Below are positions 12,526 through 27,978 of a stretch of DNA of 64,000 nt, one piece after another. The stretch spans positions 29,082 to 93,081 of the IMG/VR virus record IMGVR_UViG_3300037322_000275. The stretch is one strand, 5' to 3'. The stretch comes from a virus. The notes below the pieces were generated by a model. That model did not search any database. It was not told the DNA's origin and was given only the letters and a program-made list of their open reading frames with translations. The position numbers and the translations under genes were made by a program. The stretch's first letter is position 1. Each line of letters opens with the position of its first letter.

Positions 12526-13083
12526 TTATTTTGTGACAACATAGTCACTTTCTCTAAACGTTTCATTTTTGAGTTCTATAAACTCTCCTAATTCTTGATC
12601 TACATTAAGTTTAACTCCTAATCCTAGTTCTATTTCTTTTTTGAGTTTTTCTTCTTTGTATAAAATTTGTTTTAACTTGACTAAAAATTTAATACCTAAC
12701 GGATTGCCAGAATATACTTGTCCCCAAAATCTTAAAATCAGTTGTTTTGCATCTGTTTTAAATTCTGAGTATTTACTGTTTTTTAAACAGTAATATTCAT
12801 GCAAGTATTCTTCTGGAAATTTAAATATATAGAGAACTTTATTTCCTAAATCTATGTTTTTTACAAACAGCTCGTTATTTGTGAGCTTGTTTTCATAATG
12901 TGTAAACTTAGGATCTTTAAAGTTAAATTCATATAGTAAACAAAAACAATCTAAATGCTTGCTTTTTTCAACAAACATATAGGTGTTAATTAAAGACGAC
13001 ATGAATTTTATATCTAAATCTAAAACTTCCGACATCAAAGGTAATAGATACGACTTTGATTTAGTGTATTTTTTTTTATTCAT
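12526..13083 (-). CDS. Hypothetical phage protein
   Basis: 185 aa, co-oriented and coupled to neighbours. Confidence 0.75.
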   Translation of the reverse strand: MNKKKYTKSKSYLLPLMSEVLDLDIKFMSSLINTYMFVEKSKHLDCFCLLYEFNFKDPKFTHYENKLTNNELFVKNIDLGNKVLYIFKFPEEYLHEYYCLKNSKYSEFKTDAKQLILRFWGQVYSGNPLGIKFLVKLKQILYKEEKLKKEIELGLGVKLNVDQELGEFIELKNETFRESDYVVTK

Positions 13084-14120
13084 TAATTTACTTCTATAAA
13101 ATCATCATTTAACATTAGGTTTCCATTACTTTGATAAACTTCTTGACTAAAGTCGTAAAGTTTATTTTTCCAATGATAATAAATTAAGTCAAGATTTTCA
13201 TCAAGTCCTTTATATTTATAACCCGCCTTAGTTGTAAAACCATTAATTGCCGCATTATGCCATTTATCACCTATTTCAAATACGTGAGGAACTTTTTCAC
13301 CTCTACCTATGAATATAAATTTAAATGGTGCAAGTTGGTAATTAATTAAATCTAACTTTCTACAAATACTATCAAATGCTTTAACATATACTGCTTCTTG
13401 AAAATAGTAACAATATTTTATAAAACTTTTGGTAAATTCGTCAGCTCTTGAAGATCCTGTCTTAATGTCTTCCATATAAACAATTTTATTTGAATGATCT
13501 ATTGACATTTTGTCAATGATTCCTCTTAATGTAAAATTCTTGTATTCATATGTAAACGTGTATTGATAGTGATTTTCAAAAGTATTGTTGAACAAATGCG
13601 TTGTGTGTTTGTGATTCAGTAATAAACTTACACATTCTTGAGCATCATCATTTTCCCTTTGAGTAACTACAACTTTATCTCTGATTTCAGATTTTATTTT
13701 AACATAATTCCAAAATTCTGGTAAATCAAATTTCTTAATTAAAGTTTCATCTAGTTTGATGTTACTCCAAAAAGCATTATGTTTTACAATCTTTAGAATT
13801 GTTTCTTTATCTGGTACAGTGTCATAGTTTTCTAAAACAATATCACATAACGAACCTAATGTTGCTGTTGGCTTGTTATCATCATAGATAACATATGTTT
13901 CTTTAAAAACATTATTTCCTGTAACTCTATCTACTAATAGATCATCACATAGTGAACCAAACCTTAATCCATTTCCATCTGGATTAGATGGTCTAATTAA
14001 AGCCTTAGGTCCATTTCTATCAAAATCACTAATTCGTGAATAAGAGAGCTTTAAATCAATTTGCTCTTCTTTATTGAGTAATTGACTTAATTTGTTTTCT
14101 TCTGTATTTTCTATTTCCAT
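13083..14120 (-). CDS. PD-(D/E)XK exonuclease (RecB/Exo VIII-like)
   Basis: LSYSRI, FGSLCD, GIIDKMSID...EDIKTG, YYFQEAVY. Confidence 0.8.
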   Translation of the reverse strand: MEIENTEENKLSQLLNKEEQIDLKLSYSRISDFDRNGPKALIRPSNPDGNGLRFGSLCDDLLVDRVTGNNVFKETYVIYDDNKPTATLGSLCDIVLENYDTVPDKETILKIVKHNAFWSNIKLDETLIKKFDLPEFWNYVKIKSEIRDKVVVTQRENDDAQECVSLLLNHKHTTHLFNNTFENHYQYTFTYEYKNFTLRGIIDKMSIDHSNKIVYMEDIKTGSSRADEFTKSFIKYCYYFQEAVYVKAFDSICRKLDLINYQLAPFKFIFIGRGEKVPHVFEIGDKWHNAAINGFTTKAGYKYKGLDENLDLIYYHWKNKLYDFSQEVYQSNGNLMLNDDFIEVN

Positions 14121-14373
14121 TTATTACAATTAGTTCAATTACAATGTCCATTAAACTATCTATTTTTTTGTACTGAACTATAGATGTACCATTGTCATAT
14201 AGAAACTCTTCTTTTTCTAAACTATTTTCAAATTTTTCATTAATATAATCTAAAAACAAACGAGCTTCATTGTATTTATTATTAATAATATTACCAATAA
14301 ATCTAATGTACTCTTTTTCAGTAAATATAAAAATTGATAACTCTTTAATTCTTTGTAATTGTTTTTTTTTCAT
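14071..14373 (-). CDS. Hypothetical protein
   Basis: 100 aa ORF in operon. Confidence 0.6.
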   Translation of the reverse strand: MKKKQLQRIKELSIFIFTEKEYIRFIGNIINNKYNEARLFLDYINEKFENSLEKEEFLYDNGTSIVQYKKIDSLMDIVIELIVINGNRKYRRKQIKSITQ

Positions 14374-14375
14374 TT

Positions 14376-14816
14376 TTAATTTATTTTAATCCAGACTCCT
14401 GGATTTTCTTTATCAATACTATATGCATTATTTTCTATTTTTAAAGCATAAGGTAAAACACAATCCATATTATCATCATCAATAATATTATGTGCTGTAA
14501 GTAAATCTAAAATAATTTGAACAATATTATGAAAATCAATTTTTCTTCTGCTATCTCTAACAAAATGAAAACCTATTTCTAGAGGTAACACTTTTCCTTT
14601 GATGTTTTTTTCAAACTGTGTTCTCAATTGTTCAATTAAGTTAGGTCTATTTACGTAACCCTTTACTTCTTGTTTACTTGAAGAATACGATTGTATTCCT
14701 AATTTTGTAATGTAAGCTTTAGAAGTCTTAGACATAAAACTCCCACGACTTGTGTTTATTCTGCTATTTTTTGAAGATGGTACATTAAAAGGTATCCATA
14801 TTAAGTTGTCATTCAT
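14376..14816 (-). CDS. RusA-like Holliday junction resolvase
   Basis: VPSSKNS...RRKIDFHN...LDLL...IDDDN pattern. Confidence 0.7.
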   Translation of the reverse strand: MNDNLIWIPFNVPSSKNSRINTSRGSFMSKTSKAYITKLGIQSYSSSKQEVKGYVNRPNLIEQLRTQFEKNIKGKVLPLEIGFHFVRDSRRKIDFHNIVQIILDLLTAHNIIDDDNMDCVLPYALKIENNAYSIDKENPGVWIKIN

Positions 14817-14838
14817 ACTGATTATTATTATATTTCTA

Positions 14839-14870
14839 CAAATATAATCAATATAAATGACAATTCCTAA
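14839..14870 (-). promoter_or_regulatory. Bacteroidota-type promoter
   Basis: TTAGGA-N18-TATATTTG. Confidence 0.75.
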
Positions 14871-14885
14871 TATTTAATGACTTAA

Positions 14886-15572
14886 TTACCAGATAATTTC
14901 TCTAATACCGTCAGATCTTAATATACTGTTTACTTGATTAAAAATATTGTTTGTATTACAAAGTTCTTTTTCAGTATTTTCAAAAACATAGTGTTTCTTA
15001 TTGTCAATGTACTTTTTAAAATGTTCATTACCTTGTTCTAAAAACAAAAATACAATGTTTTCTTTTTCTTCATTAATTGTGTATATAAACTGTCTTACAA
15101 AGTTTTTCCAATATTCAGAATGATCTTCACCAAATTTCCATGTTAAAGAAGTATTTAGCATTAGAACACCTTGGTTAGCCCACCATTTCATAGTATTGTC
15201 AAATTCCTGTGTGTCTTCATAAACTGTATCATTTACACAATTTATGATTTTTTTGTTTATGTCAGGAATTATTTGATTTAAATGTACATCAGAAACACCA
15301 TAAGCTAAACCGTTTGTTAAATATGTAGGTCTTAAACCAAAACATACAACTTTTAGTTTATCAAAAGGAGTTTTTCTAAAACAATTAAACAACTCTTCTT
15401 TCTTTGGATACACATTAACATGATTTTTGTAATATTCATCTATAAAGACAGCAAGATTATTCATATAAGAAGTACAAAGAAGATTTTTAGACAACGGTTT
15501 TGCCCAATCTTTCAGCAGTACACTGTAATTTGATTTAAATACAGAAGTTTCTAATTTGTGTTCTATTTCCAT
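14886..15572 (-). CDS. Uracil-DNA glycosylase family 1-like protein with degenerate catalytic motifs
   Basis: VYPKKEELF, TPFDKLKVV, NGLAYG, WANQGVLMLNTSLT retained; GQDPY replaced by GLRPTY; HPSP absent. Confidence 0.8.
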   Translation of the reverse strand: MEIEHKLETSVFKSNYSVLLKDWAKPLSKNLLCTSYMNNLAVFIDEYYKNHVNVYPKKEELFNCFRKTPFDKLKVVCFGLRPTYLTNGLAYGVSDVHLNQIIPDINKKIINCVNDTVYEDTQEFDNTMKWWANQGVLMLNTSLTWKFGEDHSEYWKNFVRQFIYTINEEKENIVFLFLEQGNEHFKKYIDNKKHYVFENTEKELCNTNNIFNQVNSILRSDGIREIIW

Positions 15573-15580
15573 AATTAATA

Positions 15581-17419
15581 TTAAATTGTTTCAGAGTCTA
15601 AAGCTAGTGGAGAATCAACAAAAAGTGATGCTGCTTGATCTGAAAAACCCATAGAAACTAAAGAAGTTTTTCTGGATTTTTGAGATTTCGCACTACTTTG
15701 TATGTAGGACGTGAACTCATCACTTTCTAATGGTTCATTAGTATTTAAAGATTGTTTAGGATCATAAATACCTGTAAAAAAGTTATTATCTTTTTTACGA
15801 ACTTCTGTAGGTGTTTCATATCCTGTAGATTTTTCATAATTTAAACCTATAAATCCAATATAATCAGAACCCTTTGAAGAAATATAATTTGAATAATCTG
15901 TTTTAGAATAAAAATCTTTAGAGTCTTTCCAATTAATAAGTCCTCCATTTTTTATTTTTGATTCATCACCAAGGACAAGTCCATGTTTGTTTTGTGATTC
16001 TGTGGAAATTCTTCTGTTCTGCAAGTATTTAAAAAGTGATTTTCTTAAATAACTTTTTGCAATACCATTAGACAAAGAAATATCTATAATTGAAAATATA
16101 CCTTTTCTTCCGTCAAAAAAGTTTTTATCTTCTAAAATCTGATTTTGATATTTTTTTACAAAATTAACTAGAATAGAATTTAACAAAATAAAACTTATAA
16201 TTTTGTCTATATCATATGTTGGTGTATGAATTCTAAATTCAATTGTTGTTTTGTTTCCAAAAATTAAAGGAATCAAGTTGTGTATGTGATATCTTGTATG
16301 CACATTCCATTTTTGAGAACCTTGTGGATCTCTTGGATGAACAGATACATTATCTAAGTTACAACCTACCTCATTAAAACTTTGACCTTCTGACAAATAT
16401 TGATATAAAACATTAAAGTTTTGATCAATGTTTGTTGGCGTAATTTGAGTATCTAATTTAGAAACTAAAGAATACGCAGGATAAGGTGCAGAATAGTTCT
16501 TGTTTTTTAAACCAAAGTTATACTTTTTGTAGATTGGAAAATAAGAAAACATTTCATCTTGTATTTCACAAGTAAACTTAAAAAATGCAAGAATAAATTC
16601 CTTTGTTCTTGGTATGTTTCCTAAATGTAAATGTAAGGAACAAGTGTCATCAAATGTTGTTTTTTCATTTAAGATTTCTAATTGGTCAACAACTGTTTGA
16701 AGACCTTTTTCACCTCTTAATGGAATTGTAACATATTCAATACCTGAAATAGAACCATCTCTTAAGGGAATTAGTCCTACTCTATCTGTAATTCTTTTAG
16801 GTATAAATCCTTTAACTGTCTCAAATTCTAAACCAAAACTTAAATCTTCTAAAACATTTCCATATTTTTTGATATCTTCTGAAATAACACCATCATACAA
16901 GTTGTTATAAATCTCTGAATAATGAGAAATAAGACCCTTTGAGTCATAAGGTAAACTTGTCTTATATTCAGATCTTGGTGTTGAAATTCTTCCAAATTCT
17001 CTTGCTTGTAATCTAGAAATGTGGTAGAAGTTACCATCTGCAAGTCTTTCTCTATAGAAATTATTGTTTTTTAAGGAATCCGCATCAAACAGTAATTTTT
17101 GTTCTCCGTTTTCTAACGTTATCACAGATAGTGTTTCTTCTTGTTTAAAGTAACCTTCAACTAAAGAACCGTCTTCATTCACACAAACAATACCTTTTGT
17201 TAAGTGAGGTGTTAAAACGTCGTAACTGTTGATTGTAAAGTTATAGACAATAGAATCAACACCTAAAATTCGATACTTGTTTTTTACTAAATAACAATCT
17301 CCTGAATTTTCAATTAATGGGTCTCCTACTTTGTAGTAGTTTCCATTAATAAGTCTACAGTCTTGTGCTAATTCAGTATTTCCTAGAGGTGTAATCACTC
17401 TCTTTTGTTTATCTTTCAT
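15581..17419 (-). CDS. COOH-NH2 ligase (amidoligase, glutamine synthetase/GCS-like fold)
   Basis: FGLEFE, RDGSISGIEYVT, TCSLHLHLG, RYHIHNL, TIEFRIH; start at MKDK (17419) preferred. Confidence 0.85.
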   Translation of the reverse strand: MKDKQKRVITPLGNTELAQDCRLINGNYYKVGDPLIENSGDCYLVKNKYRILGVDSIVYNFTINSYDVLTPHLTKGIVCVNEDGSLVEGYFKQEETLSVITLENGEQKLLFDADSLKNNNFYRERLADGNFYHISRLQAREFGRISTPRSEYKTSLPYDSKGLISHYSEIYNNLYDGVISEDIKKYGNVLEDLSFGLEFETVKGFIPKRITDRVGLIPLRDGSISGIEYVTIPLRGEKGLQTVVDQLEILNEKTTFDDTCSLHLHLGNIPRTKEFILAFFKFTCEIQDEMFSYFPIYKKYNFGLKNKNYSAPYPAYSLVSKLDTQITPTNIDQNFNVLYQYLSEGQSFNEVGCNLDNVSVHPRDPQGSQKWNVHTRYHIHNLIPLIFGNKTTIEFRIHTPTYDIDKIISFILLNSILVNFVKKYQNQILEDKNFFDGRKGIFSIIDISLSNGIAKSYLRKSLFKYLQNRRISTESQNKHGLVLGDESKIKNGGLINWKDSKDFYSKTDYSNYISSKGSDYIGFIGLNYEKSTGYETPTEVRKKDNNFFTGIYDPKQSLNTNEPLESDEFTSYIQSSAKSQKSRKTSLVSMGFSDQAASLFVDSPLALDSETI

Positions 17420-17439
17420 ACTTTTTAGTAAGTTTTTTA

Positions 17440-19470
17440 TTATTTTAATATAAGTGACGAAATACAATCTACAATTTGTTCTAGTATAACTATACATTCT
17501 TGTGCTTTTTCGTTTTCTCGGTAATCTTGTAAAGACTTCTTTAAATCTATTATTTCTTGAATAGGCTCTGTTAGAGATTCTCCAATTAATTCCAGTATAA
17601 AGTCATCCGTTTCTTTATTATTGTTAATCTCAGTACTTCCTGAGTCATGTAAACTTTTTAGGAAAGCTTCATCGTTTTGAGCAAGAACTTCTTTCTTTTC
17701 TATTTCATTTTCTTTAACAGTAATTGTTTCTTCAATTGTCAAAATGTTATTTATTGCTTTTTTTATTATAGGATTTTCTTTAGCAAAACTAATTGGAAGT
17801 TGAATCACACTTGCTTCTTTCTTTATAAAAGGAAATTTAACATCTTCTCTGATTACAATTTTGGTAAGTATACCTTTTTCAATAGAATATATTTTTTCAC
17901 CACCTAAATAACAAACACCACCATTTAATGTGTTTGCAGGTTCACCATTAAACAAGATTTTAGATTCTGCACTTGTCTTGTCATTACCTTTGGTAATGTT
18001 AATAACAGGATGTTTTGAAACATAAGAAAGTTCTCTAAAACTTAAATACTCACCAGCTTTTAAAATTGCTTTTTTGTGATGCATTACAGAATAATCAATT
18101 GCAGATTTCATCATAACACCTTCAACAAAATAAAAATATGCAGGATTCTTAGATCCATTTTTGTAAGGAATAAAGTCTGTACTTTCTGTTTTTACAGCAT
18201 TAAATGAGTTTTTTTCTGCATTAAAGAATAAACCTTTGTACCATTCAATTTCTTTATCTGCATTAGATATTGTTTGAGAAATGTGTTTAAAACCAAAGTT
18301 TTTAATGTAAGTGTAAATTCCATTTATACTGTGTCCATTTGAATAGTATCTAAATTTATTAAAGTAAATACGTGAACCATAATCTGAAGTATCTTTTATT
18401 GTTTTTTCGTTGTGAATATTCAAGTCATTTTCAGATCTTAAAGAAGGAAAGTTTTGAACGTATTCGTTTCTTTTGTTTGCTCTAGCATTGTTGTAATTAA
18501 CAGAATCATTGTAACCATCGTTATCATAAAATCTTTCATCACAATGACTGAAGTTTTGATTTAAATTTGTAGGTGCCTTATAATTAGCATACGTTTGATT
18601 TTGTGTTATTTTTTCTCTACTAATTTTCCAAGTCTGTGCTTCTTTAAAATTACCATCAGTAACACAATAAACAACATTGTTTTCAATCTGAAATGAATTT
18701 TTATCATCAGCACCAATTGCTTGTAAACTATCTAAAAGTGAAGAAACAAACATGTTGTTTTTAGACTTTAAATAAACACACAAAGGTCTTTCTAGCTCTA
18801 CTTTAGAATGCATGTAATCGTATTCCTTTGAAGCACCTGAAAATAAGTAAATTTTATTAGGTGCTGCAGTATAAGACCACACTAATGCTGCAGTTCCAAC
18901 GTAGTCACTTAACACTCTAAAGTTTTGTTCTTTGTAAAGAATTTCAAGTAATACTTCACTATCTATTTTATCTCTTGTACTAACAGGAGTGCTGTAGTTG
19001 TCTATTTCCTTTAACTCTATATTATACTTTTCAGCAAGTTCTTTATGATTCTTTAAAGTTCCATTATGTACACCTACAAATGCATATCCTCTATTGTGTT
19101 CCAGTTCACCAAAACCAAAGGGATGTGCATTATTTAAAGATATCGCATGTCCTGCACTTGCTTGTCTTGTATGACCTATAATGGTTGGAAAGTGTTTAGG
19201 TTTTAAATTTCTGTTTTTTATAAAATCTGTATAAAGTTTATCTTGGTTTACACCATGATGTATTTCACCATCAAAAGTCACACCACATGAATTTTTACCT
19301 CGTTCTACATTATATATTCCTAGAATATTGAATTCAGAAGTAGATATTGAACTTGGCAATTTTGTTGCTTGTGCAAAAATTCCACAGTTTAACGTTAAAT
19401 GTCTTGTTTTTGAAAACAAGTTTATCAAGATTTGTAAGAATGCAAATATTATTATTCCAAGTATTATCAT
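17440..19470 (-). CDS. Class II (Ntn) glutamine amidotransferase with N-terminal hydrophobic extension and large unknown C-terminal region
   Basis: CGIF (Cys29), RGKNSCG, GHTRQAS, NAHPF, HNGTL, DSE. Confidence 0.88.
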   Translation of the reverse strand: MIILGIIIFAFLQILINLFSKTRHLTLNCGIFAQATKLPSSISTSEFNILGIYNVERGKNSCGVTFDGEIHHGVNQDKLYTDFIKNRNLKPKHFPTIIGHTRQASAGHAISLNNAHPFGFGELEHNRGYAFVGVHNGTLKNHKELAEKYNIELKEIDNYSTPVSTRDKIDSEVLLEILYKEQNFRVLSDYVGTAALVWSYTAAPNKIYLFSGASKEYDYMHSKVELERPLCVYLKSKNNMFVSSLLDSLQAIGADDKNSFQIENNVVYCVTDGNFKEAQTWKISREKITQNQTYANYKAPTNLNQNFSHCDERFYDNDGYNDSVNYNNARANKRNEYVQNFPSLRSENDLNIHNEKTIKDTSDYGSRIYFNKFRYYSNGHSINGIYTYIKNFGFKHISQTISNADKEIEWYKGLFFNAEKNSFNAVKTESTDFIPYKNGSKNPAYFYFVEGVMMKSAIDYSVMHHKKAILKAGEYLSFRELSYVSKHPVINITKGNDKTSAESKILFNGEPANTLNGGVCYLGGEKIYSIEKGILTKIVIREDVKFPFIKKEASVIQLPISFAKENPIIKKAINNILTIEETITVKENEIEKKEVLAQNDEAFLKSLHDSGSTEINNNKETDDFILELIGESLTEPIQEIIDLKKSLQDYRENEKAQECIVILEQIVDCISSLILK

Positions 19471-19492
19471 TGTTTTTTATTTTTATTTATTT

Positions 19493-20293
19493 TTATACTA
19501 ATTCTGCAACTTTTGAAAGAGAAATTAAACTCAATAATTTAGTAGCTAACTCTCTATTGTTTGTGTTAATAGCTTCTACAATTTGATCTGCATACTGACT
19601 AGCAATATCTTTTACTTTACCTGAATTAACTAATTCAATAGCTTCTAACGTAGAGTAATAAGCCCACGTAAGTAATTCATCATTTACAATCCAGAAGTTA
19701 CTTAAAACACGGTATTCAACACCAAAGTTTGTAAATCTAAAACAACCTGCTTTACCATACATTTCTTTTCTTCTGACATCACTATCTAAAAGAACAGATT
19801 GTAAACCTAAAACAATATCCATTGCTTTAATAAGTTCTTCTTGAACTTCCTCTGTAGGATCATCCCAACCTATTGCAATATGTCCACCTGCACTTCTTAA
19901 ATTTAAAGAAGCATCTCCTGCGGGATTAACACTGTATGACCAAACATCAAAGTCAGGCTCACAACCAATTGCTTTTGCTTGATCTGAATCAAGTTGTTTG
20001 TCAGAAAGTATTGCAGATGCTGAAAAGTTTAGTTTACAGCCAATACCTGTAACAAATACATCTAAATAATCTTTTACAAAATTATGTTCTTTAATCCATT
20101 GTTGTAGACTATTACAAGGTGGAATATTATATTCTATTAAAACATTGTCTTCCTGTACTGCATGACCGAGATTTGTAATTTTACGAGGTTTATATTTTGT
20201 ACCACCAATCAATCCTACAGAAGAGATAATTTCTCCATCTTTTTCTAAAAACATTTCTGGATCAGAACCTAAAGTTATATTTTTTATTTTCAT
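19493..20293 (-). CDS. phiEco32-like COOH-NH2 ligase type 2
   Basis: GSDPEMF, QEDNVLIEYNIPP, GCEPDF, RSAGGHI, RRKEMYGKAGCFR, GVEYRVLSNFW. Confidence 0.9.
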   Translation of the reverse strand: MKIKNITLGSDPEMFLEKDGEIISSVGLIGGTKYKPRKITNLGHAVQEDNVLIEYNIPPCNSLQQWIKEHNFVKDYLDVFVTGIGCKLNFSASAILSDKQLDSDQAKAIGCEPDFDVWSYSVNPAGDASLNLRSAGGHIAIGWDDPTEEVQEELIKAMDIVLGLQSVLLDSDVRRKEMYGKAGCFRFTNFGVEYRVLSNFWIVNDELLTWAYYSTLEAIELVNSGKVKDIASQYADQIVEAINTNNRELATKLLSLISLSKVAELV

Positions 20294-20300
20294 TTTTGAG

Positions 20301-21158
20301 TTACTTTTTATTAATTAAATATTCTTTTACTAAAGATAAACACATATCTTTTGTTTTTTGAGGACAGTTAGGATATTCAGGGTGACCTTGAATACATAAT
20401 GCTTTTGTATTAGGATAATATACAATTTCACATTCTAAAAAATCTGCAGATCTCTTTATTTCTTCATCATTTCCATTTAGATATGTTGAACTGTTAAAAT
20501 ACTTAGAATGAGCAATAATTTTGTAGTTTAATTGTGACATTTCAAAGGGAAACATCATTTGATGATGTGTTGAAGTTATTTCATAACTCTTTCCTTTTTG
20601 GTCTTCTATTTCATGGTTTCTACCGTGACCTGTAACGTGTTGGATCAACTTACCACCAGAATAAACTGTTAAAAATTGAGAACCTCTACATATTCCTAGT
20701 TTTGGTACGTTATAGTAATTATTCAATATTGATTCTTCAAGATTATCTCTTGTTTTGTTACAACTTGTATATTTACCTTTATTTTCACCATAAATTTCAG
20801 TAGAAACATCTTCACCACCTGTAAACAAAACTAAATCTACTTTTTCTGAATTTATCTCACCATGTTTTAGAACTGTAATGTCAAAACATTCAGACAACCA
20901 TTTTATTTCTTCTTCTGCAGAATTGTTGTTTGCAACTAAAATGTTTAAAGCTATCTTTTTTTTATCTACAGGATTTTCATGTTCTTCATCAAAACCGTTT
21001 TCCACAATATATTGTGCTTTTTCTTTATGCCCAATACCAGGAATTTTTTCATAATCTTGTGCAGAAATACTATGATTAATGTAATTTGCAATTTGTTCTT
21101 TATCGTTTTGAAATGCTTCCTTTATAGAGCAAAGAAACATTTTTAAATTATCTTCCAT
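20301..21158 (-). CDS. Class I GATase / peptidase C26 (gamma-glutamyl hydrolase-like), copy 1
   Basis: TGGEDV, GICRGSQ, STHHQ, QGHPE (Cys-His-Glu triad). Confidence 0.88.
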   Translation of the reverse strand: MEDNLKMFLCSIKEAFQNDKEQIANYINHSISAQDYEKIPGIGHKEKAQYIVENGFDEEHENPVDKKKIALNILVANNNSAEEEIKWLSECFDITVLKHGEINSEKVDLVLFTGGEDVSTEIYGENKGKYTSCNKTRDNLEESILNNYYNVPKLGICRGSQFLTVYSGGKLIQHVTGHGRNHEIEDQKGKSYEITSTHHQMMFPFEMSQLNYKIIAHSKYFNSSTYLNGNDEEIKRSADFLECEIVYYPNTKALCIQGHPEYPNCPQKTKDMCLSLVKEYLINKK

Positions 21159-21159
21159 T

Positions 21160-21522
21160 TTATCTTTTATTTTTTATTATACACATTACTCTTTTACTTC
21201 TGTTTGTACTTATATATGCTTGTTTCAACAAAAAATCATTCTTATCAAAACAGTTTTCAATAGTTTCCAGATATTTTTGACAAAATTCAATTACAAAATT
21301 TCTGTTTTTACCAATAACTTTAGTTATTTCTCTAAATTGTTCAAGTATTTTTTCTCTGTCTTCTAAACTAAACAAAGTTTCAATTCTACCTATTGTACAG
21401 TGTTGACAGTTGTAAAAAGGAGATTCACTAACTAACAAAGCACCATATTTATTTGAGTTCCATGTTCTTGGAAAGGTAGCATTTATTAAAATAAAGTCTT
21501 CTTGTTTAATAACATTATCCAT
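21160..21522 (-). CDS. Hypothetical protein inside the ligase cluster
   Basis: 120 aa; SESPFYNCQ...YISTNRSKRVMCII; weak similarity to the C-half of 30232-30834. Confidence 0.7.
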   Translation of the reverse strand: MDNVIKQEDFILINATFPRTWNSNKYGALLVSESPFYNCQHCTIGRIETLFSLEDREKILEQFREITKVIGKNRNFVIEFCQKYLETIENCFDKNDFLLKQAYISTNRSKRVMCIIKNKR

Positions 21523-22363
21523 TTATTTTACGTTTAATAATTTTAGGAATTTCTTCAATATATTTTTTAGCACATACAGACAATTCTCCACTACCATTAT
21601 CCATAGATGAAGCACTATTACATTCTAGTAATATAAAATCTTGATATTCTCTTTTATCACCATTTTTATCTATAGGTGATTGAACTTTTACATCAAAAGA
21701 AAGTAAATCAGCACCTATTGCTACTAAGGCATTTACACAATTTGCAACAATATCATCCCAACTATTTGGTTTGTAAAATTCAACAGAATCTTCTAAAAAC
21801 CACACACAAATATCATCGTGTCTTCTCCACTTTTGGTCTTCAGGTACATCTTTTTTTAATGCTTTTCTACAAGTGTAAAAACAACCATCTTCTGTGATGT
21901 GTAATCTGAATTCGTGACCATAGTTAAAAAACTTTTCAAAGATGTAATTATTTACATTTTTACCAGTTTTCCACTGTTGAAATTCTTCTATAGATTTAAT
22001 TAATGTGTTACCTCTACCTTTAGAACCAAAGTGAGATTTTGCAACAATTGGAAATTCTGGAAGATTGTTTTCTTCAGCTGTTAAGTCACTTCCAGAAAGC
22101 CACATTGCTGTCTTAATACCTGCTTCTGTAAACTTCTTTTTCATCAGTAATTTAGAAGCTGAATTCTTAATTGATTCAACCGTGTTAATTTCTACACGGT
22201 TACCTCCATTTGCTATTGTGTCTCCACATTCTGTTGACGAGCCAAGTCTTATTACAGAACGAACTGAAGACAATTCAATATTTTTTGATTTCAATCTAAG
22301 ACAATCGTGTGAAGGATGTCTTGACAAGACTAATGGTCTAAATAAAGTGAGTTTCTTTTTCAA
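21515..22363 (-). CDS. ATP-grasp amide/peptide ligase (RimK/YheCD-like)
   Basis: PIVAKSHFGSKGRG, FEKF, EFRLH, FDVK, LECNSA. Confidence 0.88.
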   Translation of the reverse strand: MKKKLTLFRPLVLSRHPSHDCLRLKSKNIELSSVRSVIRLGSSTECGDTIANGGNRVEINTVESIKNSASKLLMKKKFTEAGIKTAMWLSGSDLTAEENNLPEFPIVAKSHFGSKGRGNTLIKSIEEFQQWKTGKNVNNYIFEKFFNYGHEFRLHITEDGCFYTCRKALKKDVPEDQKWRRHDDICVWFLEDSVEFYKPNSWDDIVANCVNALVAIGADLLSFDVKVQSPIDKNGDKREYQDFILLECNSASSMDNGSGELSVCAKKYIEEIPKIIKRKING

Positions 22364-22364
22364 T

Positions 22365-23054
22365 TTAGTTGTTTTTTAAAGTTAAAAGATAGTGGATACA
22401 GGTTACTGAAAATTTGTCATAAATTTCCTCAACGTGCCACTGTGTTGTGATTGCAGGGTAATTTGGTAAATAGGATAAAGCTTCAATTTCTTGAGTATAT
22501 TCTTTTACTTTAACATCTTTTGGTGCATAATAACCAAGTACAACAGCATTTTCAGGAACTGAAGCAACTGTTTGATGGTGAATACTGTTTACACTAAAAG
22601 TTTGATTTGATAATTCAGGTATTTCAAACACATTGTTTGTGCAATGTATTTTGTGAACAAGATCTTTCCTAGAAGAAGTATTTTGTTCGTGATGCATATC
22701 TTGTTTTATTTTAGCACCAAAATATACAGCTAATGATTGATGACCTCGACAAGTTCCCCAAATTGGGGTTCTTTGTGCAATGTACTTTGGTAAAAGAACT
22801 TGATCAAATCTTTCTCTGTACATACATGGTGCACCAGTACTAAAGTTAATGTCTTCACCTGGTTCCAAGTATCTCCACGGTGCAACATCTGGACCACCTG
22901 GCAATACCAACAAATCTAAATCTCTGACTTCTTTATCAAATGGAGTTATCAATATAACTTCACCAAAGTAACTAAAGAAATTTACATAAGGTAATGTAAT
23001 TCCAAAACTATTTCCACCTGTTAATACGTGTCCTACGATTCCTATTTTTTTCAT
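22365..23054 (-). CDS. Class I GATase / peptidase C26 (PuuD-like), copy 2
   Basis: LPGGPDV, GTCRGHQ, VNSIHHQ, QWHVE. Confidence 0.88.
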   Translation of the reverse strand: MKKIGIVGHVLTGGNSFGITLPYVNFFSYFGEVILITPFDKEVRDLDLLVLPGGPDVAPWRYLEPGEDINFSTGAPCMYRERFDQVLLPKYIAQRTPIWGTCRGHQSLAVYFGAKIKQDMHHEQNTSSRKDLVHKIHCTNNVFEIPELSNQTFSVNSIHHQTVASVPENAVVLGYYAPKDVKVKEYTQEIEALSYLPNYPAITTQWHVEEIYDKFSVTCIHYLLTLKNN

Positions 23055-23070
23055 CTTTTTTGTATTTTTA

Positions 23071-23241
23071 TTATTTTTTATTTATAATTTTATCTTGCTC
23101 TGTTAAAGAAATACCACTAAGTTTATTAGACAGTAACCCACACGTTACACACCAAGTTACACCAAATTCATTATCTCTTAATTTGTGTTTACCTTTATCA
23201 CATTGAGATCTTCGTAACCAGTATATTTCTCTTGTTAGCAT
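23071..23241 (-). CDS. Small putative zinc-binding protein (56 aa, not in ORF track)
   Basis: MLTREIYWLRRSQCDKGKHKLRDNEFGVTWCVTCG...; C-x4-H-x11-C-x2-C. Confidence 0.55.
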   Translation of the reverse strand: MLTREIYWLRRSQCDKGKHKLRDNEFGVTWCVTCGLLSNKLSGISLTEQDKIINKK

Positions 23242-23303
23242 ATTTTTATTATTTTTAATTGTATTGTACAGCTTTACCTTATTTCTGTAGAATGTTGTCT
23301 TTA

Positions 23304-23792
23304 TTAGTCAAATAAAGTACATTTTTTATTTTCCCACCAGAACAACAACATTCCTTCGTTTTTTTTGTTAAATTTTTCTACGTAATACTCAGGAGTAAAT
23401 ATGGCATCATCTTGAACGTATAAAGAAGCAAATGTAAAGTTTGTAACACTAAAATCTACAAGAGTATCGTATAACGTCTTAAAATTTCTGCCTCTAAGTA
23501 CACCACTATCAATAAAAATGTAATGTGTATCTTTTTGTAAATCAAAGACAAAATCTTTACAATAACTTGGATATTCTTTTTCAAAAGGAGTATTGGGAAA
23601 GGGTATATCAAAATTAATCATTGTTAAAGGATTATCAAAATATGCATGAATTACTTGTTGCGAAATAATAGACGAATAATCTGGACTACAATTTACAACT
23701 ATTGTATTTCTAGTTACTATAGGTTTTAGCCACTCTATTAATTCTTTAATATCTCTTTTTTCTTTTTTTTGATTTATTTTAAAGTATTTCAT
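23304..23792 (-). CDS. Type I phosphoribosyltransferase-like protein
   Basis: YIFIDSGVLRGRNF resembles a PRPP-binding loop; FASLY...TPEYY and C-terminal FWWE as in HPRT/XPRT-like proteins. Confidence 0.6.
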   Translation of the reverse strand: MKYFKINQKKEKRDIKELIEWLKPIVTRNTIVVNCSPDYSSIISQQVIHAYFDNPLTMINFDIPFPNTPFEKEYPSYCKDFVFDLQKDTHYIFIDSGVLRGRNFKTLYDTLVDFSVTNFTFASLYVQDDAIFTPEYYVEKFNKKNEGMLLFWWENKKCTLFD

Positions 23793-23804
23793 AGTTTTAG
23801 TTAT

Positions 23805-24209
23805 TTAATTATTACTAAGACTTCGGTATCGTGTTTTCAAATCTCTAAATTCTTTCCAATCTCCAGATTCTACTAATTGAGACGCGGGTATTTCATCTAC
23901 ATATACATAAGTAGATGCTTCACCATAAGGTGTGTTAATTTTAATTTTGTCATAAAATGTGGCAGGTCTATCTTGAGAATAACCTTCTAGACCATCTATT
24001 CGTGAAGCTTCTAAAGCATCTACTTCATAGACTTCCATAACTACAGGTGTTGTACCTTCCTGTTTTAATCCTGGATAGCCTCCTAAAGAATATAAGGAAT
24101 ACTCAGGTTCTGTTGTGAAGGTTCCTAAGAATTTAGCATGTGTTAAATAATGATCATTTCCCATGTCTTTTCTAAGTGAGCCATAAACACTAACTAATCT
24201 TTTTGTCAT
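23805..24209 (-). CDS. Gamma-glutamylcyclotransferase (AIG2-like)
   Basis: VYGSLRK, GGYPGL, EVYEV, IDGLEG (catalytic Glu), SGDW. Confidence 0.9.
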   Translation of the reverse strand: MTKRLVSVYGSLRKDMGNDHYLTHAKFLGTFTTEPEYSLYSLGGYPGLKQEGTTPVVMEVYEVDALEASRIDGLEGYSQDRPATFYDKIKINTPYGEASTYVYVDEIPASQLVESGDWKEFRDLKTRYRSLSNN

Positions 24210-24220
24210 TTTTTTTATAT

Positions 24221-24823
24221 TTAAGTTGTTATATTCTTTTTTGAAAGTATATCTGTGTAATGTTCACCAAGAGTTGTTTTTTTTTCAGTAATTGTCTGTA
24301 AAAAATCAACCCAATCGCCATCTCTAACTAAAACGTCAGACTTAGTAATTGTACCTTCCCAAAAATAAATAAAAATTTCACCAAAAGGTGATCCTACACA
24401 GTGTCTTGTAAAGTAGTTGGTTTCAGGAAATATGTTACCTTCATCAAATCCATTAAATAAATCTAAAGTTTCTAGAACACTTTGTGTAACTGAAAATACT
24501 TCAACTAAAATAGAATGATCACCTTTAACTAAAGCTGAAATCATATCTATATCAATTTTATACAACGAATATTCAGGTTCTGTGTAATAAGAACCTACAA
24601 AAAGAGTATCCATTCCTTTTCTTGAAATGTCTCGGTGTTCAACAGTTGATTTTCTATAGTCACCATAGAAACCTACTAAAAATCTTTTTTCCATGTTATT
24701 ATTTGTTGGTTGTTTTAATTGTCTTTTTTCTTCTCTTTTTTTAAGTCTATTTTGTGTTTTGGCTTTCGCCATTTCACTGTACTTTTCTTTGTTTTTAGTT
24801 TTTGCTCTTTTACTTCTTCCCAT
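24221..24823 (-). CDS. Second GGCT-like protein, degenerate, with basic N-terminal extension
   Basis: FYGDYRK, TEPEYSLY (shared with neighbour), VEVFSV, LDLFNG (no Glu), DGDW. Confidence 0.75.
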   Translation of the reverse strand: MGRSKRAKTKNKEKYSEMAKAKTQNRLKKREEKRQLKQPTNNNMEKRFLVGFYGDYRKSTVEHRDISRKGMDTLFVGSYYTEPEYSLYKIDIDMISALVKGDHSILVEVFSVTQSVLETLDLFNGFDEGNIFPETNYFTRHCVGSPFGEIFIYFWEGTITKSDVLVRDGDWVDFLQTITEKKTTLGEHYTDILSKKNITT

Positions 24824-24824
24824 T

Positions 24825-25859
24825 TTAAAAAGGTAATAATGTTTCGTATAATAATATTTGTTTTGCTGCATCTTTACCAAAGTTTTTTACTAGATCTGAA
24901 GGATCTTTTGACTGATATGTTGTTGGAATAAAACAATCAACAAGTCCAAAATCTTTAGAAATTTTATCTGCAAACTTTCTTCCCCAGTTAATTTCGGCAT
25001 CAAAATCATTGTCATATAGTAATGAAATATCTTTAAAACGATCTTTCAACTGATCAAAAACATGTCTTTTTGGTAAAATGTTTTCACATTGTAATGCTAC
25101 AGAAGGTAATCCTAATAAACTATCGATAACCATAACATCTTTTAATGACTTAGTAATTACTAAATCTGCTCCTTGTTGTGGAAGTTGTTCCCAACCTTGC
25201 CATACAGAACTGTCATGATTAGTTATCCATTTAAATTTTTCATTAAAAGGTTGATATATTTTGTATGTTTCAACTTTGTCTTTAATTTCTATAAAAACGT
25301 AGGCATGCTTATCTGCAAGATATGGTGTGTCATTTATAAAAAAGTAATCTATTGCTTCTACTCTATATTTTTCAAGAGTTTTTTTACTTATTTCAAAACT
25401 TTCCCAAAATAAAACATCATGTACTTGCCACTTGCGATTTCTTTTTTGAATCTTGTAACTTACTGACTTTGCAATTAAATCTGTTCTATTTAGTTTAGAA
25501 AAATTGTTGTTTAAAAGTTTTGTTTTTTCCATTTTTTTTAGAACAAAAAATTCTTCTAACTCAAAATCTACACCAATTTTACTCAATGCTTCCCAATAAG
25601 TTAAACTGAATTTCATTTGTACAAACTTTACAAAGTCTCCACCACCTAATTTAAAGTCGTTAAAACACACTTCATTTCCTTCTCCAATAAAGAAACCAAA
25701 AGAAGGAGTTCCTTCATTTCTAAAAGGAGAAATATTTGGTTTACCACCAATACTAATATCAAAATCAACATATTTTCTGTATATATCAATATCTTGATAA
25801 TGTTGTAATATTCCTTTTTTGGAAATCATTTCCTTTTCTACATTTAAATCTATTTTCAT
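24825..25859 (-). CDS. DNA primase (crAss-type DnaG/TOPRIM)
   Basis: SPFRNEGTPSF (Cys-less Zn-finger-like), ITKSLKD, LYDND, KDPSD. Confidence 0.85.
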   Translation of the reverse strand: MKIDLNVEKEMISKKGILQHYQDIDIYRKYVDFDISIGGKPNISPFRNEGTPSFGFFIGEGNEVCFNDFKLGGGDFVKFVQMKFSLTYWEALSKIGVDFELEEFFVLKKMEKTKLLNNNFSKLNRTDLIAKSVSYKIQKRNRKWQVHDVLFWESFEISKKTLEKYRVEAIDYFFINDTPYLADKHAYVFIEIKDKVETYKIYQPFNEKFKWITNHDSSVWQGWEQLPQQGADLVITKSLKDVMVIDSLLGLPSVALQCENILPKRHVFDQLKDRFKDISLLYDNDFDAEINWGRKFADKISKDFGLVDCFIPTTYQSKDPSDLVKNFGKDAAKQILLYETLLPF

Positions 25860-25897
25860 ATTAAACTTTTCATAATTTATTTAACTTTAGTTAATAT

Positions 25898-25992
25898 TGA
25901 TGTCGAGACAGGATTCGAACCTGTACGAGAATAAACCATTCCTTTTATTTCTCTATCTGTTAATTAGCGTCTACCAATTCCGCCACTCGACA
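25898..25992 (-). ncRNA. tRNA-like element with Leu-type D arm and no canonical anticodon arm
   Basis: Acceptor TGTCGAG/CTCGACA; D arm GCGGAATTGGTAGACGC; T arm ACAGG-TTCGAAT-CCTGT. Confidence 0.7.
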
Positions 25993-26030
25993 ACCATTAT
26001 AGATTATTTACTAATCTACAATATTATAGA

Positions 26031-26600
26031 TTATCCCCAAGGATCATCACTTTTTTTAGCACTATTTCCATCAGAGTCAGGAAGTGGTGCATCTGCAACA
26101 GGTCTTTCCATAATATCTGTGGCAGAACTTTTTAATCTACTGAATTCTACATTTGTAGGTTCAATAAAATTAAAAGTTCTTAATCCTAGATATTTAGCCA
26201 GTTTTTGTTGACCTACATAACCGTAGGTTACAAACACATTAACTTTTACACCTTCACAGTTGTCTTTAATAATTTTAAATAAACTATTTACAGCTTCACT
26301 GTAACTGTTAACTATAGGATACACAAAATCTGCAGGTAAAACTGCTTTTGCAATTGACTTAATTCTTTGAATTGTTTGTGTCTGACGTTTTTCATCATCT
26401 GACTCATCAAAGTAAAAGCCCTGATTGATAGGTGTACCACCTGAATTATCTGTTACAATTAACTTGTAAGGTGGGTTTTTGTCTGGCTCGTCAGCTTTAC
26501 GTTTTTCTATGCTAACTAAAACATTTTCTACTTTTCCAGCAGATCCATTGTTGAATACTGAGATTGCAGTATTATCGTAATCATTTAAATTAAAGCTCAT
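26031..26600 (-). CDS. Putative single-stranded DNA-binding protein
   Basis: Follows the AAA ATPase; beta-rich body with flexible acidic tail ending DDPWG. Confidence 0.6.
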   Translation of the reverse strand: MSFNLNDYDNTAISVFNNGSAGKVENVLVSIEKRKADEPDKNPPYKLIVTDNSGGTPINQGFYFDESDDEKRQTQTIQRIKSIAKAVLPADFVYPIVNSYSEAVNSLFKIIKDNCEGVKVNVFVTYGYVGQQKLAKYLGLRTFNFIEPTNVEFSRLKSSATDIMERPVADAPLPDSDGNSAKKSDDPWG

Positions 26601-26671
26601 ATATTATATTTTTATTTATTTGGCGTGTATGTATTACTTTTTATAGAAGTATAACTATTGTTTATTTATTT

Positions 26672-27433
26672 TTAAATAAAAATTTGTGACCAGTCAATTG
26701 TTAGTTTACCAGAATCATCTGATTCAATTAATGTGATCTTTTTATTTTTTAAATGCTCACTACGTGAACCACAAATTAAAGAGTCTGAAGGTGTAAAGTT
26801 AACGATTGTTTTGTTTTCATCTCGATATAAATATCCAATCGCATCTACTTGAGAACATAAGATTGACGCGGATTTACCTATTAAATCGAGACCTCTTTCA
26901 GTCATTTCTTTTCCTTCTTTTTCTACAAATTTATCTTTTAAATGTCCTAAAATAATTAGTGTTTCAAAACAATTTTCTAATTCTTCTAAAACCATCCATA
27001 AAGCTTTTCTAGTGTATTGATAACCTGCTCCATTTGGGAGTTGAGTAACATCATCACCAATCCAATTACGACCTTGAGCTGTTTGAGTGTACAACTTATT
27101 TGCGACTACTAAAACCATATCTTCAAGTGCTGTAACAGTATCGATTGCACCGTATTTGTAGACATAACTACCTTTTTCTTTGTTTGCTTCTTGTATTTTA
27201 TTAATTACTTCTTTTAGAATGGAAATAGGTGCTTTATCGCTTTCTTTAGCTAATTTTAGAACGTCAATTTTCATTGCTTCTACAAAATTTGCACCTCCTT
27301 CTAAGTCTATCAATAAGCAATTTTCTAAAGAACTTAAAGCTTGCGTTTTTCCAACTTTAGGTTTACTAAATAAAATCAATTTTTTTGGATTAATTCTATC
27401 TATCTTTCCTTTTTTACTTGGTAATTCAATCAT
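26672..27433 (-). CDS. AAA_24 / Sak4-like ATPase
   Basis: SKPKVGKT Walker A, IDLEGG, IDTVT, LGH. Confidence 0.85.
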   Translation of the reverse strand: MIELPSKKGKIDRINPKKLILFSKPKVGKTQALSSLENCLLIDLEGGANFVEAMKIDVLKLAKESDKAPISILKEVINKIQEANKEKGSYVYKYGAIDTVTALEDMVLVVANKLYTQTAQGRNWIGDDVTQLPNGAGYQYTRKALWMVLEELENCFETLIILGHLKDKFVEKEGKEMTERGLDLIGKSASILCSQVDAIGYLYRDENKTIVNFTPSDSLICGSRSEHLKNKKITLIESDDSGKLTIDWSQIFI

Positions 27434-27504
27434 TTTTTATCTTCCGACCTACCATATACCTCTAATTAATTGTTAATAACTAATTTGTATATTTTTGTAA
27501 ATTT

Positions 27505-27978
27505 TTAAATATTTTTCATTTGTAAATCTAATTTAGGAAACAGATCTGCAATATTATAATCTGCAAAACAACTAGACCTTCCATACCGACATAGTGATCT
27601 CAAATTTGATTTTCTTATGTTTCCACAATAACCAATACTAAGATATACTCCATCTTTGTTTTTTTCCTTTTCCACATTTAATAAATGTGTAATTGATTCT
27701 TGTATTGTAATTTCTGGAAAATAGTTTTTTGATAGCTTAAAGAAATCATCAAAACTACGGTACTTATAATCGTTTTGTGTTTCACAATGTACCTGATTGT
27801 CTCTGTAAAAAGTACTTTTTTGTTCTCTTGGTAATATTCCTCTTAATCCAAGTCCAAAAAGATTTCTAAAAATATCATCTAATGAATCAATAATAACATC
27901 TTCTCTAAATTTTATTTTTCTTACTTTTGAAAAATATATTTCAACATCTTCAATTGTTTTTACATTTCGTTTTATCAT
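27505..27978 (-). CDS. Unknown paralog family, member A
   Basis: STFY...HCE...KYRSFDD...KNYFPE...GYCGNI. Confidence 0.75.
   Translation of the reverse strand: MIKRNVKTIEDVEIYFSKVRKIKFREDVIIDSLDDIFRNLFGLGLRGILPREQKSTFYRDNQVHCETQNDYKYRSFDDFFKLSKNYFPEITIQESITHLLNVEKEKNKDGVYLSIGYCGNIRKSNLRSLCRYGRSSCFADYNIADLFPKLDLQMKNI

Follow-up and report, generated by a model that had tools for sequence, protein, structure and literature searches.

What kind of system is encoded by the 11 co-oriented open reading frames (ORFs) that lie between a primase gene and a UDG gene in the virus record IMGVR_UViG_3300037322_000275, and what could it make? These ORFs occupy positions 15581-24823, on the minus strand, of the 64,000-nucleotide stretch analysed here (positions 29,082 to 93,081 of the record; hereafter the window), and are spaced by 1-62 nt or overlap by a few bases. 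An earlier note on this DNA had described them as one 11-gene 'writer-eraser' system of amide ligases and gamma-glutamyl hydrolases, and as the strongest candidate for an undescribed system. The arrangement is indeed present as it had been described. However, the locus is now well supported as an enlarged variant, in a crAss-phage (Steigviridae-like), of the phiEco32/LUZ24/RIO-1-type phage amide-ligase cassette; it is a widely distributed variant of a known, uncharacterised phage cassette, and not a new kind of system. Families were assigned with Pfam, PHROGs and NCBIfam, and the genes read as follows in transcription order (lengths in amino acids, aa):

24221-24823, minus strand: GGCTa, 200 aa, GGACT fold, weak match (Pfam E 1.8e-6); first gene of the conserved unit
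23805-24209, minus strand: GGCTb, 134 aa, canonical gamma-glutamyl(amine) cyclotransferase (GGACT E 3.5e-18)
23304-23792, minus strand: p162, 162 aa, member of the function-unassigned family phrog_29004; lineage-specific insert
23071-23241, minus strand: zf56, 56 aa, Cys-containing ORF of no family; window-specific
22365-23054, minus strand: C26a, 229 aa, Peptidase_C26 / class I amidotransferase fold (Pfam E 1.3e-22)
21515-22363, minus strand: ATP-grasp, 282 aa, RimK-like carboxylate-amine ligase (phrog_2599 E 1.6e-17, Pfam weak)
21160-21522, minus strand: u120, 120 aa, no family
20301-21158, minus strand: C26b, 285 aa, second Peptidase_C26 (Pfam E 1.2e-15, phrog_7218 E 1.4e-32)
19493-20293, minus strand: COOH-NH2 ligase type 2 (GCS2-like), 266 aa (PF14395 E 1.7e-7, phrog_3815 E 1.9e-75)
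17440-19470, minus strand: class II (N-terminal nucleophile, Ntn) glutamine amidotransferase, 676 aa (GATase_6 E 9.6e-9)
15581-17419, minus strand: Amidoligase_2 of glutamine synthetase (GS)-like type, 612 aa from the ATG at 17419 (PF12224 E 8.6e-5)

Nine of the genes agree in family with the labels first given to them; 'PRTase-like' (p162) and 'Zn-finger' (zf56) were guesses without a family match.

Which of these genes belong together was judged from relatives, obtained by scanning IMG/VR with the COOH-NH2 ligase. Of the 13 loci returned, 10 (L003-L010, L012 and L013), most of them on 36-103 kb contigs, share with the window a collinear stretch that takes in an AAA_24 ATPase gene, a 189-aa gene, primase, UDG, RusA and an exonuclease. 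In their primase-to-UDG slot, the conserved order is GGCTa, GGCTb, C26a, ATP-grasp, C26b, COOH-NH2 ligase, amidotransferase and amidoligase, and these eight proteins share 30-66% identity between window and relatives; the DNA of L009 ends inside the ligase gene, and the eight-gene order was judged where the DNA extends far enough. Because eight genes keep their order in 10 independent viral contigs, gene order argues against a chance arrangement, which we dismiss, and the expectation that the genes would co-occur as a unit in other genomes is borne out for these eight. For p162 and zf56, no counterpart was found in any of the 10 relatives, and, for u120, weakly similar ORFs (26-28% identity) occupy the corresponding junction in just two of them, L003 and L004; in other relatives, the insert junctions are hot spots for unrelated small ORFs that vary in position. 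As these three ORFs are not conserved with the cassette, the conserved system, by the sequence comparisons made here, comprises eight genes and not eleven.

The COOH-NH2 ligase is the signature gene of the phiEco32-type cassette. That of the window matches PF14395 above cut-off and phrog_3815 over its full length, and tblastn recovered it in 314 phage records (LUZ24/PaP3/tf-like, phiEco32/Kuravirus, PA11, CW02, Vibrio, Aeromonas and others). With its ligase in 314 sequenced phages, the phiEco32-type cassette is among the most widespread phage enzyme sets without a known product. PMC5498523 and PMC10580990 trace its first prediction to Iyer et al. in 2009 and also cite Hardies et al., 2013; both present it as a conserved unit whose function is unknown or hypothesised. 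A seven-gene 'peptidoglycan modification cassette' is reported in RIO-1-like phages (PMC5498523), and the cassette possibly serves cell-wall modification and superinfection exclusion (PMC10580990). With a core described since 2009 and 2013, and a C26 gene already present in PA11, CW02 and RIO-1 types, the locus can no longer be held up as the strongest candidate for an undescribed system.

The likeness between the window and the phiEco32-type cassette extends to the COOH-NH2 ligase type 2, the RimK-like ATP-grasp and GGCT, to the Amidoligase_2 gene that adjoins a class II amidotransferase (as it does in tf, MN03, phi14:2 and cr108_1), and to the co-orientation of the genes among early or replication genes of lytic phages. 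The C26 amidotransferase, of which homologues were found in 57 phage records, is already an optional member there (PA11/CW02/RIO-1 types; PMC5498523). This copy had rightly been called richer than the phi14:2/phiEco32 core, and the true expansion is the second C26 gene and the second GGCT-fold gene.

Several differences from the phiEco32-type cassette were also observed, the first being a gene order unlike that of the window. In tf and MN03, two proteins of about 300 aa upstream and one of about 200 aa downstream of the ligase have no counterparts in the window, and profile comparison of the window with tf_20 and MN03 gp092 was negative. The idea that the approximately 200-aa ligase neighbour of tf/MN03 corresponds to the N-terminal extension of the window amidoligase was rejected on this negative comparison. 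These extra tf/Kuravirus proteins are outside the published definition of the cassette, so that their absence marks a variant and is no ground for exclusion. Moreover, the N-terminus of the window amidoligase extends about 200 aa beyond that of the tf/MN03 enzymes, which also lack its tail. The amidotransferase family hidden Markov model (HMM) aligns with that of tf (tf_22) over positions 1-177 only, i.e. the glutaminase part, and does not detect Kuravirus MN03 gp090, annotated as an amidotransferase. In tf, whose family is unrelated to crAss-like phages, the cassette end adjoins a MazG-like gene, followed by primase/helicase (L042 5172-14768).

The closest named relatives are phi14:2, a Cellulophaga phage, and cr108_1 (both Crassvirales, Steigviridae, Asinivirinae), in which ATP-grasp, COOH-NH2 ligase, amidotransferase and amidoligase stand in the same order as in the window, with 29-47% identity. 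In phi14:2, the primase-to-UDG slot likewise holds the cassette, as a core of five genes, g037-g041 (GGCT, ATP-grasp, COOH-NH2 ligase, amidotransferase, amidoligase), without C26 or a second GGCT. In cr108_1, gp028-gp034 fill that slot with seven genes, including one C26 and two paralogues of about 300 aa of unassigned function, and without GGCT. The five-, seven- and eight-gene versions thereby amount to a natural dissection of core and add-on enzymes. The crAss-type variant is abundant in environmental metagenomes, where close relatives of the amidoligase make up at least 801 clusters, and it has a cultivable representative in phi14:2.

The capacity of the unit for amide chemistry was assessed gene by gene. 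The amidoligase ORF was called at 15581-17497, its true start being probably the ATG at 17419. It scores 23 bits against PF12224 (cut-off 22), carries the catalytic-core motifs FGLEFET, GLIPLRDGS, CSLHLHLG and TIEFRIHTPT, and is 36% identical to phi14:2 g041; in alignments, a conserved N-terminal extension of about 190 aa and a variable, low-complexity-looking tail frame the core. A scan of genome contigs returned only phage-sized or short contigs of metagenome-assembled genomes (MAGs), with no clear cellular homologue. Contigs of 96-104 kb with a crAss-type amidoligase (L044, L048 and L049) are filed in Allosphingosinicella, Peptococcaceae and Clostridia MAGs; they are probably phage contigs binned with bacteria, and such labels are not host evidence.

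The ATP-grasp protein has a weak Pfam ATP-grasp match and weak NCBIfam matches (purK, rimK_fam and MptN), and is 47% identical to phi14:2 g038. Searches of PDB sequences returned nothing for ATP-grasp, the COOH-NH2 ligase or the amidoligase, and Pfam at E 10 gave only noise for the C-part of the amidotransferase, the N- and C-parts of the amidoligase, the N-part of C26b and u120.

In C26a, the nucleophile elbow GTCRG and HVEE (H-x-E) are present, leaving the Cys-His-Glu triad motifs intact, and the protein recurs in the 10 relatives at 46-64% identity. Its PDB sequence matches include Lin1909 and PuuD, and among named NCBIfam models it comes closest to gamma-glutamyl-CDP-amidate hydrolase and PuuD, with scores far below either cut-off. 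C26b has an N-terminal extension of about 100 aa, followed by a domain with GICRG and HPE motifs; in all relatives, as in cr108_1, its gene immediately precedes that of the COOH-NH2 ligase. For both C26 enzymes, the best named NCBIfam match is a nucleotide-linked gamma-glutamyl amide hydrolase, far below cut-off, and by sequence they appear nearest to PuuD-type hydrolases.

The claim of two cyclotransferase folds holds in part. GGCTb (phrog_2520 E 3e-25; 39% identity to phi14:2 g037) is intact, with YGSL and LEGY retained, as they are in its orthologues. In GGCTa, the catalytic-Glu motif LEGY is replaced by LFNGF in the window and by xYxYY in eight relatives of the alignment, and YGSL by YGDY in the window and YDDY in relatives; none of the 9 aligned copies has Glu at the catalytic position. 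The fold is retained, but catalysis of the known cyclotransferase kind is unlikely, and GGCTa is probably no 'eraser'. An arm of about 60 aa, rich in Lys and Arg, precedes the GGCTa domain, and this N-terminal arm is basic in every aligned copy. Because the gene is conserved, being found in all 10 related contigs, its product is presumably functional in some other role.

The class II amidotransferase (PF13522, 35.8 bits against a cut-off of 27) shows the following layout:

19387-19470, minus strand: hydrophobic leader, residues 1-28, before the nucleophile Cys29
18601-19386, minus strand: GATase domain, residues 29-290
17827-18432, minus strand: family-specific C-domain, residues 347-548, preceded by a disordered linker
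17446-17772, minus strand: helical tail

Cys29 is kept in at least 90% of 112 amidotransferase sequences, and R102, N136-G137 and D170 are invariant. This Cys lies behind the 28-aa leader, with no start codon adjoining it. A leader is present in 7 of the 10 close relatives and in phi14:2 (g040), whereas the other three relatives and cr108_1 begin directly with Met-Cys; among the 112 family representatives, 64 begin with Met-Cys and approximately 40 have a leader of 27-30 aa. In the AlphaFold2 model (pLDDT 85), the leader forms a helix. Since the N-terminal Cys of Ntn enzymes must be free, the leader resembles a propeptide that can be removed and may serve as a membrane anchor.

In Foldseek, only the N-domain matched solved structures (GlmS, PurF, EgtC and AsnS), with GlmS, PurF and EgtC, a gamma-glutamyl hydrolase, as its nearest structural neighbours. 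The C-domain, modelled alone with a pLDDT of 92.8 and a pTM of 0.89, occurs only behind this glutaminase (176 representative clusters). Against PDB structures, neither Foldseek (best E 2.2) nor VIA-align over 48,161 chains (best Z 2.4) found a match, and its profile gave only a chance-level match to PDB sequences (E 0.22). In BFVD it occurs in the phi14:2 and cr108_1 orthologues only, an HMM likewise places the same C-domain in both of these amidotransferases, and tblastn found it in phi14:2 only; hhalign against the tf/MN03 amidotransferases gave a probability of at most 0.1, and an Atlas search with the C-part of the protein no usable match. The modelled C-domain is accordingly a candidate for a new fold. 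Complex prediction for residues 29-548 of the amidotransferase with residues 1-478 of the amidoligase gave a score of 0.00, which argues neither for nor against binding. What is new at this locus is the second C26, the Glu-less GGCT paralogue with its basic arm, the hydrophobic propeptide before Cys and the C-domain without a solved-structure match.

What might such a unit make? GS-like, GCS2-like and ATP-grasp enzymes form amide bonds via acyl-phosphates, whereas C26 enzymes (PuuD, gamma-glutamyl hydrolase) and GGCT/GGACT/BtrG remove gamma-glutamyl groups. Every family in the eight-gene unit handles Glu/Gln amide bonds: three unrelated ATP-dependent carboxylate-amine ligases, one of each of these types, are combined with three Cys-nucleophile amide hydrolase folds and one intact cyclotransferase, and the catalytic motifs of GGCTb, both C26 enzymes, amidotransferase and amidoligase are intact. 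The general chemistry that the earlier note had proposed (ATP-dependent amide formation, hydrolysis of gamma-glutamyl or Gln amides, and cyclotransfer) is thus a fair inference from the families.

The same enzyme folds are combined in three known pathways. In the Puu pathway, the GS-like ligase PuuA adds a gamma-glutamyl group that the C26 hydrolase PuuD removes. In butirosin synthesis, the addition is made by the ATP-grasp enzyme BtrJ and the removal by the GGCT-fold protein BtrG. The ergothioneine pathway has EgtA, a GCS-type ligase, and EgtC, a hydrolase of the Ntn amidotransferase fold. EgtC and PuuD are themselves among the structure or sequence matches of window proteins. However, the phage proteins include no orthologue of these enzymes, all matches being far below family cut-offs, and the window cassette lacks the tailoring enzymes which, in these pathways, work between the addition and removal steps.

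Going from families, motifs and conservation to substrates, reaction order and purpose, we infer that the unit may build a small gamma-glutamyl-linked conjugate step by step in the cytoplasm, and trim it, during the replication phase, a tentative reading to which we give somewhat less than an even chance. In the infected cytoplasm, the three ligases would activate carboxylates as acyl-phosphates and couple them, as glutamate or glutamine-derived units, with an amine acceptor, so that a small (pseudo)peptide or conjugate with gamma-glutamyl linkages arises. The 28-aa leader of the Ntn amidotransferase would first be shed, freeing Cys29, and the mature enzyme would then supply ammonia for amidation, or act like EgtC and cleave a gamma-glutamyl amide. 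Gamma-glutamyl groups would be stripped off by both C26 enzymes and by GGCTb, the last releasing them as 5-oxoproline. The gamma-glutamyl group would be a transient handle or protecting group, or the chain length of the product would be trimmed, with a logic like that of the Puu, butirosin and ergothioneine pathways. This conjugate is favoured because these closest analogues add and then remove a gamma-glutamyl handle, and a small-molecule or precursor product is preferred over protein tagging. A more far-reaching version, which we regard as doubtful, would have the eight-gene cassette make an unprecedented gamma-glutamyl metabolite or adduct for host takeover or counter-defence, with the C-domain as a new acceptor-binding fold, a self-cleaved membrane-anchoring propeptide, and a dead, basic-armed GGCTa acting as a subunit for binding or delivery. 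Identification of the product would bring functional annotation to hundreds of phage genomes.

Several points weigh against the assembly of a small conjugate. Our literature search found no experimental work, and no substrate, product or target for any member in any phage. The conserved genes include no candidate for a carrier or a substrate, and the small-molecule reading rests on the absence of a protein target, which is a weak argument. RimK, the namesake of the ATP-grasp family match, modifies a protein. The C-domain of the amidotransferase, which would be expected to define the acceptor, has no recognisable fold in its model and thus gives no clue to the acceptor. Finally, the gene order reads as three pairs of a hydrolase fold and a ligase (C26a with ATP-grasp, C26b with COOH-NH2 ligase, class II amidotransferase with amidoligase), but this pairing appears specific to this clade and is given little weight: roughly 2 kb separates the C26 gene from the ligase in PA11/CW02/Vibrio-type cassettes, and C26 is missing altogether from phi14:2.

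Among the alternatives, the tagging of proteins survives best, although we consider it unlikely. In such a 'writer-eraser', the RimK-like ATP-grasp and the other ligases would attach glutamyl or isopeptide tags to host or phage proteins, C26 and GGCT enzymes (the latter GGACT-like, with epsilon-(gamma-glutamyl)lysine as substrate) would remove the tags, and the basic-armed GGCTa would be the reader. GGACT-family enzymes act on breakdown products of gamma-glutamyl-lysine isopeptides, which is consistent with tagging; however, their substrate is the free gamma-glutamyl amine and not the intact protein, which argues against it. The best PHROG of the ATP-grasp protein, phrog_2599, is annotated as a ribosomal protein S6 modification enzyme, the conserved but non-catalytic-looking GGCTa could bind a macromolecule with its basic arm, and modification has been proposed for other phage ATP-grasp families in papers of the Aravind group (PMC4431377, PMC7824862). 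Nevertheless, the cassette and its surroundings hold no conserved candidate substrate protein, the small ORFs being variable and shifting position between relatives, and three ligase superfamilies with an amidotransferase are more typical of stepwise small-molecule assembly. Nothing that we found points to the protein targets that the 'writer-eraser' reading had assumed.

Modification of envelope precursors, the hypothesis already published, is in our opinion quite unlikely. The ligases would build or alter the unusual linkages of peptidoglycan stem peptides (gamma-D-Glu, iso-Gln amidation, D-Ala-D-Ala-like) and the hydrolases and GGCT would recycle them, for superinfection exclusion or lysis timing. 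The Pfam description of PF14395 carries this envelope interpretation too. It is the one given in the literature to the phiEco32 and RIO-1 cassettes (PMC5498523, PMC10580990), and MurT/GatD offers a precedent, in which a ligase and amidotransferase pair performs glutamine-dependent amidation of the stem peptide (PMC3267633). Moreover, the transmembrane-like leader found in about one-third of the amidotransferase family would put the pro-enzyme at the membrane, the site of lipid II synthesis. The remaining cassette translations, however, show no signal peptide or transmembrane segment, and no gene related to Mur ligases, transpeptidases or lipid carriers is present. The hosts of cassette-bearing phages (Pseudomonas, E. 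coli, Vibrio, Bacteroidota and cyanobacteria) also have very different envelopes.

Still less probable is a purely auxiliary metabolism without a dedicated product, in which the host pools of Gln, Glu, glutathione or gamma-glutamyl-polyamines would be re-routed to provide the phage with nitrogen and precursors. All the activities do centre on Gln/Glu amide chemistry, and amidoligase and amidotransferase have been annotated as auxiliary metabolic genes (PMC10580990, PMC10945688). Yet three ATP-consuming, phage-specific ligases would be a costly way to salvage nitrogen, PF14395 is essentially phage-only, the amidotransferase C-domain is confined to this family, and the proteins do not show the close similarity to host enzymes that marks classical auxiliary metabolic genes.

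Lastly, an amino-acid-decorated nucleotide or a modified phage DNA would fit the place of the cassette by primase, UDG, RNR and ThyX, the recurrence of a primase neighbourhood in unrelated lineages (crAss-type; tf via MazG), the nucleotide-linked best named match of both C26 enzymes (far below cut-off) and the remarkable restriction resistance of the cassette-bearing Gordonclarkvirinae, which have no known DNA modification pathway (PMC11990801), but is highly improbable, as the cassette contains no base-flipping enzyme, transglycosylase, hydroxymethylase, kinase or DNA-binding catalytic domain, the BASEL authors credit that resistance to dCTP deaminase and nucleotidyltransferase (PMC11990801), and native Nanopore reads of Rembedalsseter, a Vicosavirus close to the ligase-carrying NV1, revealed strand nicks only and no modification (PMC11780129).

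The three ORFs outside the conserved unit were also searched for partners. p162 has no Pfam or NCBIfam match, even at E 10. Its motif FIDSGxLRGxNF only resembles a degenerate PRPP loop, and the cluster ranked 11th in an Atlas search, 36% of it Pribosyltran, is a lead only; a PRTase-like fold is thus possible. The family is common (69 clusters), and at 24 other IMG/VR viral loci none of its members has a cassette gene within 7 kb, the neighbours there being PhoH, AAA ATPases, dUTPase, clamp-loader and similar genes. With no co-occurrence with the cassette elsewhere, p162 was rejected as the supplier of a PRPP-dependent pathway step. zf56 contains three Cys and one His (C-x4-H ... C-x2-C) and gave no family match and no homologue in related loci. 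LysW-like amino-group carriers need an acidic tail; the C-terminus of zf56 is basic, and its role as such a carrier for the ATP-grasp enzyme was rejected. u120 has no family match in Pfam, PHROGs or NCBIfam.

Other insertions were seen in the relatives. An RNA_ligase-family gene (PF09414) stands at the GGCTb/C26a junction of L010 (L010:6582-7580), and an extra ATP-grasp gene (ATP-grasp_3 / ATPgrasp_Ter) between primase and GGCTa in L007 (L007:3816-4613). Mobile-looking inserts split cassette genes in three relatives (L013:8609-10483; L007:6414-8177; L012:7998-9986): a LAGLIDADG ORF (L013:9042-9818) splits the COOH-NH2 ligase of L013, and homologous 240-aa ORFs on the opposite strand, 44% identical, split C26a in L007 and C26b in L012. 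Both 240-aa ORFs combine a helix-turn-helix with a 'DRIDNSKGY..GN' HNH-like motif. Rfam, at gathering score, detected no intron at these split genes.

The genes on either side of the cassette are as follows:

24825-25859, minus strand: DnaG-type primase, upstream flank, 42% identity to phi14:2 g036 (annotated as DNA primase)
14886-15572, minus strand: UDG-like gene, downstream flank, 25-37% identity to the UDG genes of phi14:2, cr108_1 and relatives

The primase has a weak Zn_ribbon_DnaG match and is sub-threshold in Pfam, and the UDG-like gene reaches only E 0.095 (sub-threshold) with Pfam UDG; both are identified mainly by synteny and by 25-42% identity to phi14:2 g036 and g042. ThyX and RNR also neighbour the cassette in the replication module. 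From the AAA_24 ATPase (253 aa) through the 189-aa protein, primase, cassette, UDG and RusA to the exonuclease, the module follows the gene order of phi14:2 and cr108_1, with identities of 25-47%. The phage is therefore crAss-like (Crassvirales), as the earlier note had proposed, and Steigviridae-like, on the basis of replication-module synteny and homology.

Transcription signals were scanned over 13000-28000. On both strands together, 7 weak terminator-like sites were found against 2.9 expected, with no consensus terminator-like site standing out inside the cassette block; promoter-like sites were not above shuffled sequences, and Rfam gave no match. Given the minimal intergenic gaps and the lack of a standout terminator-like site, co-transcription of the cassette and the replication genes, in a single compact block, is well supported.

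The IMG/VR record is 93 kb long and estimated to be 92% complete. The DNA sequencing runs that carry this phage are salt-lake metagenomes, and no RNA sequencing runs carrying it are listed. Between the 189-aa gene and the primase, ARAGORN predicts a 94-nt tRNA-Leu(CAG) (window 25899-25992, minus strand) that the Rfam tRNA model does not match at E < 0.1. At the same slot, L013, L012 and L007 have Rfam-positive tRNAs, the match in L007 covering 130 nt, and the window copy may be degenerate or unusual.

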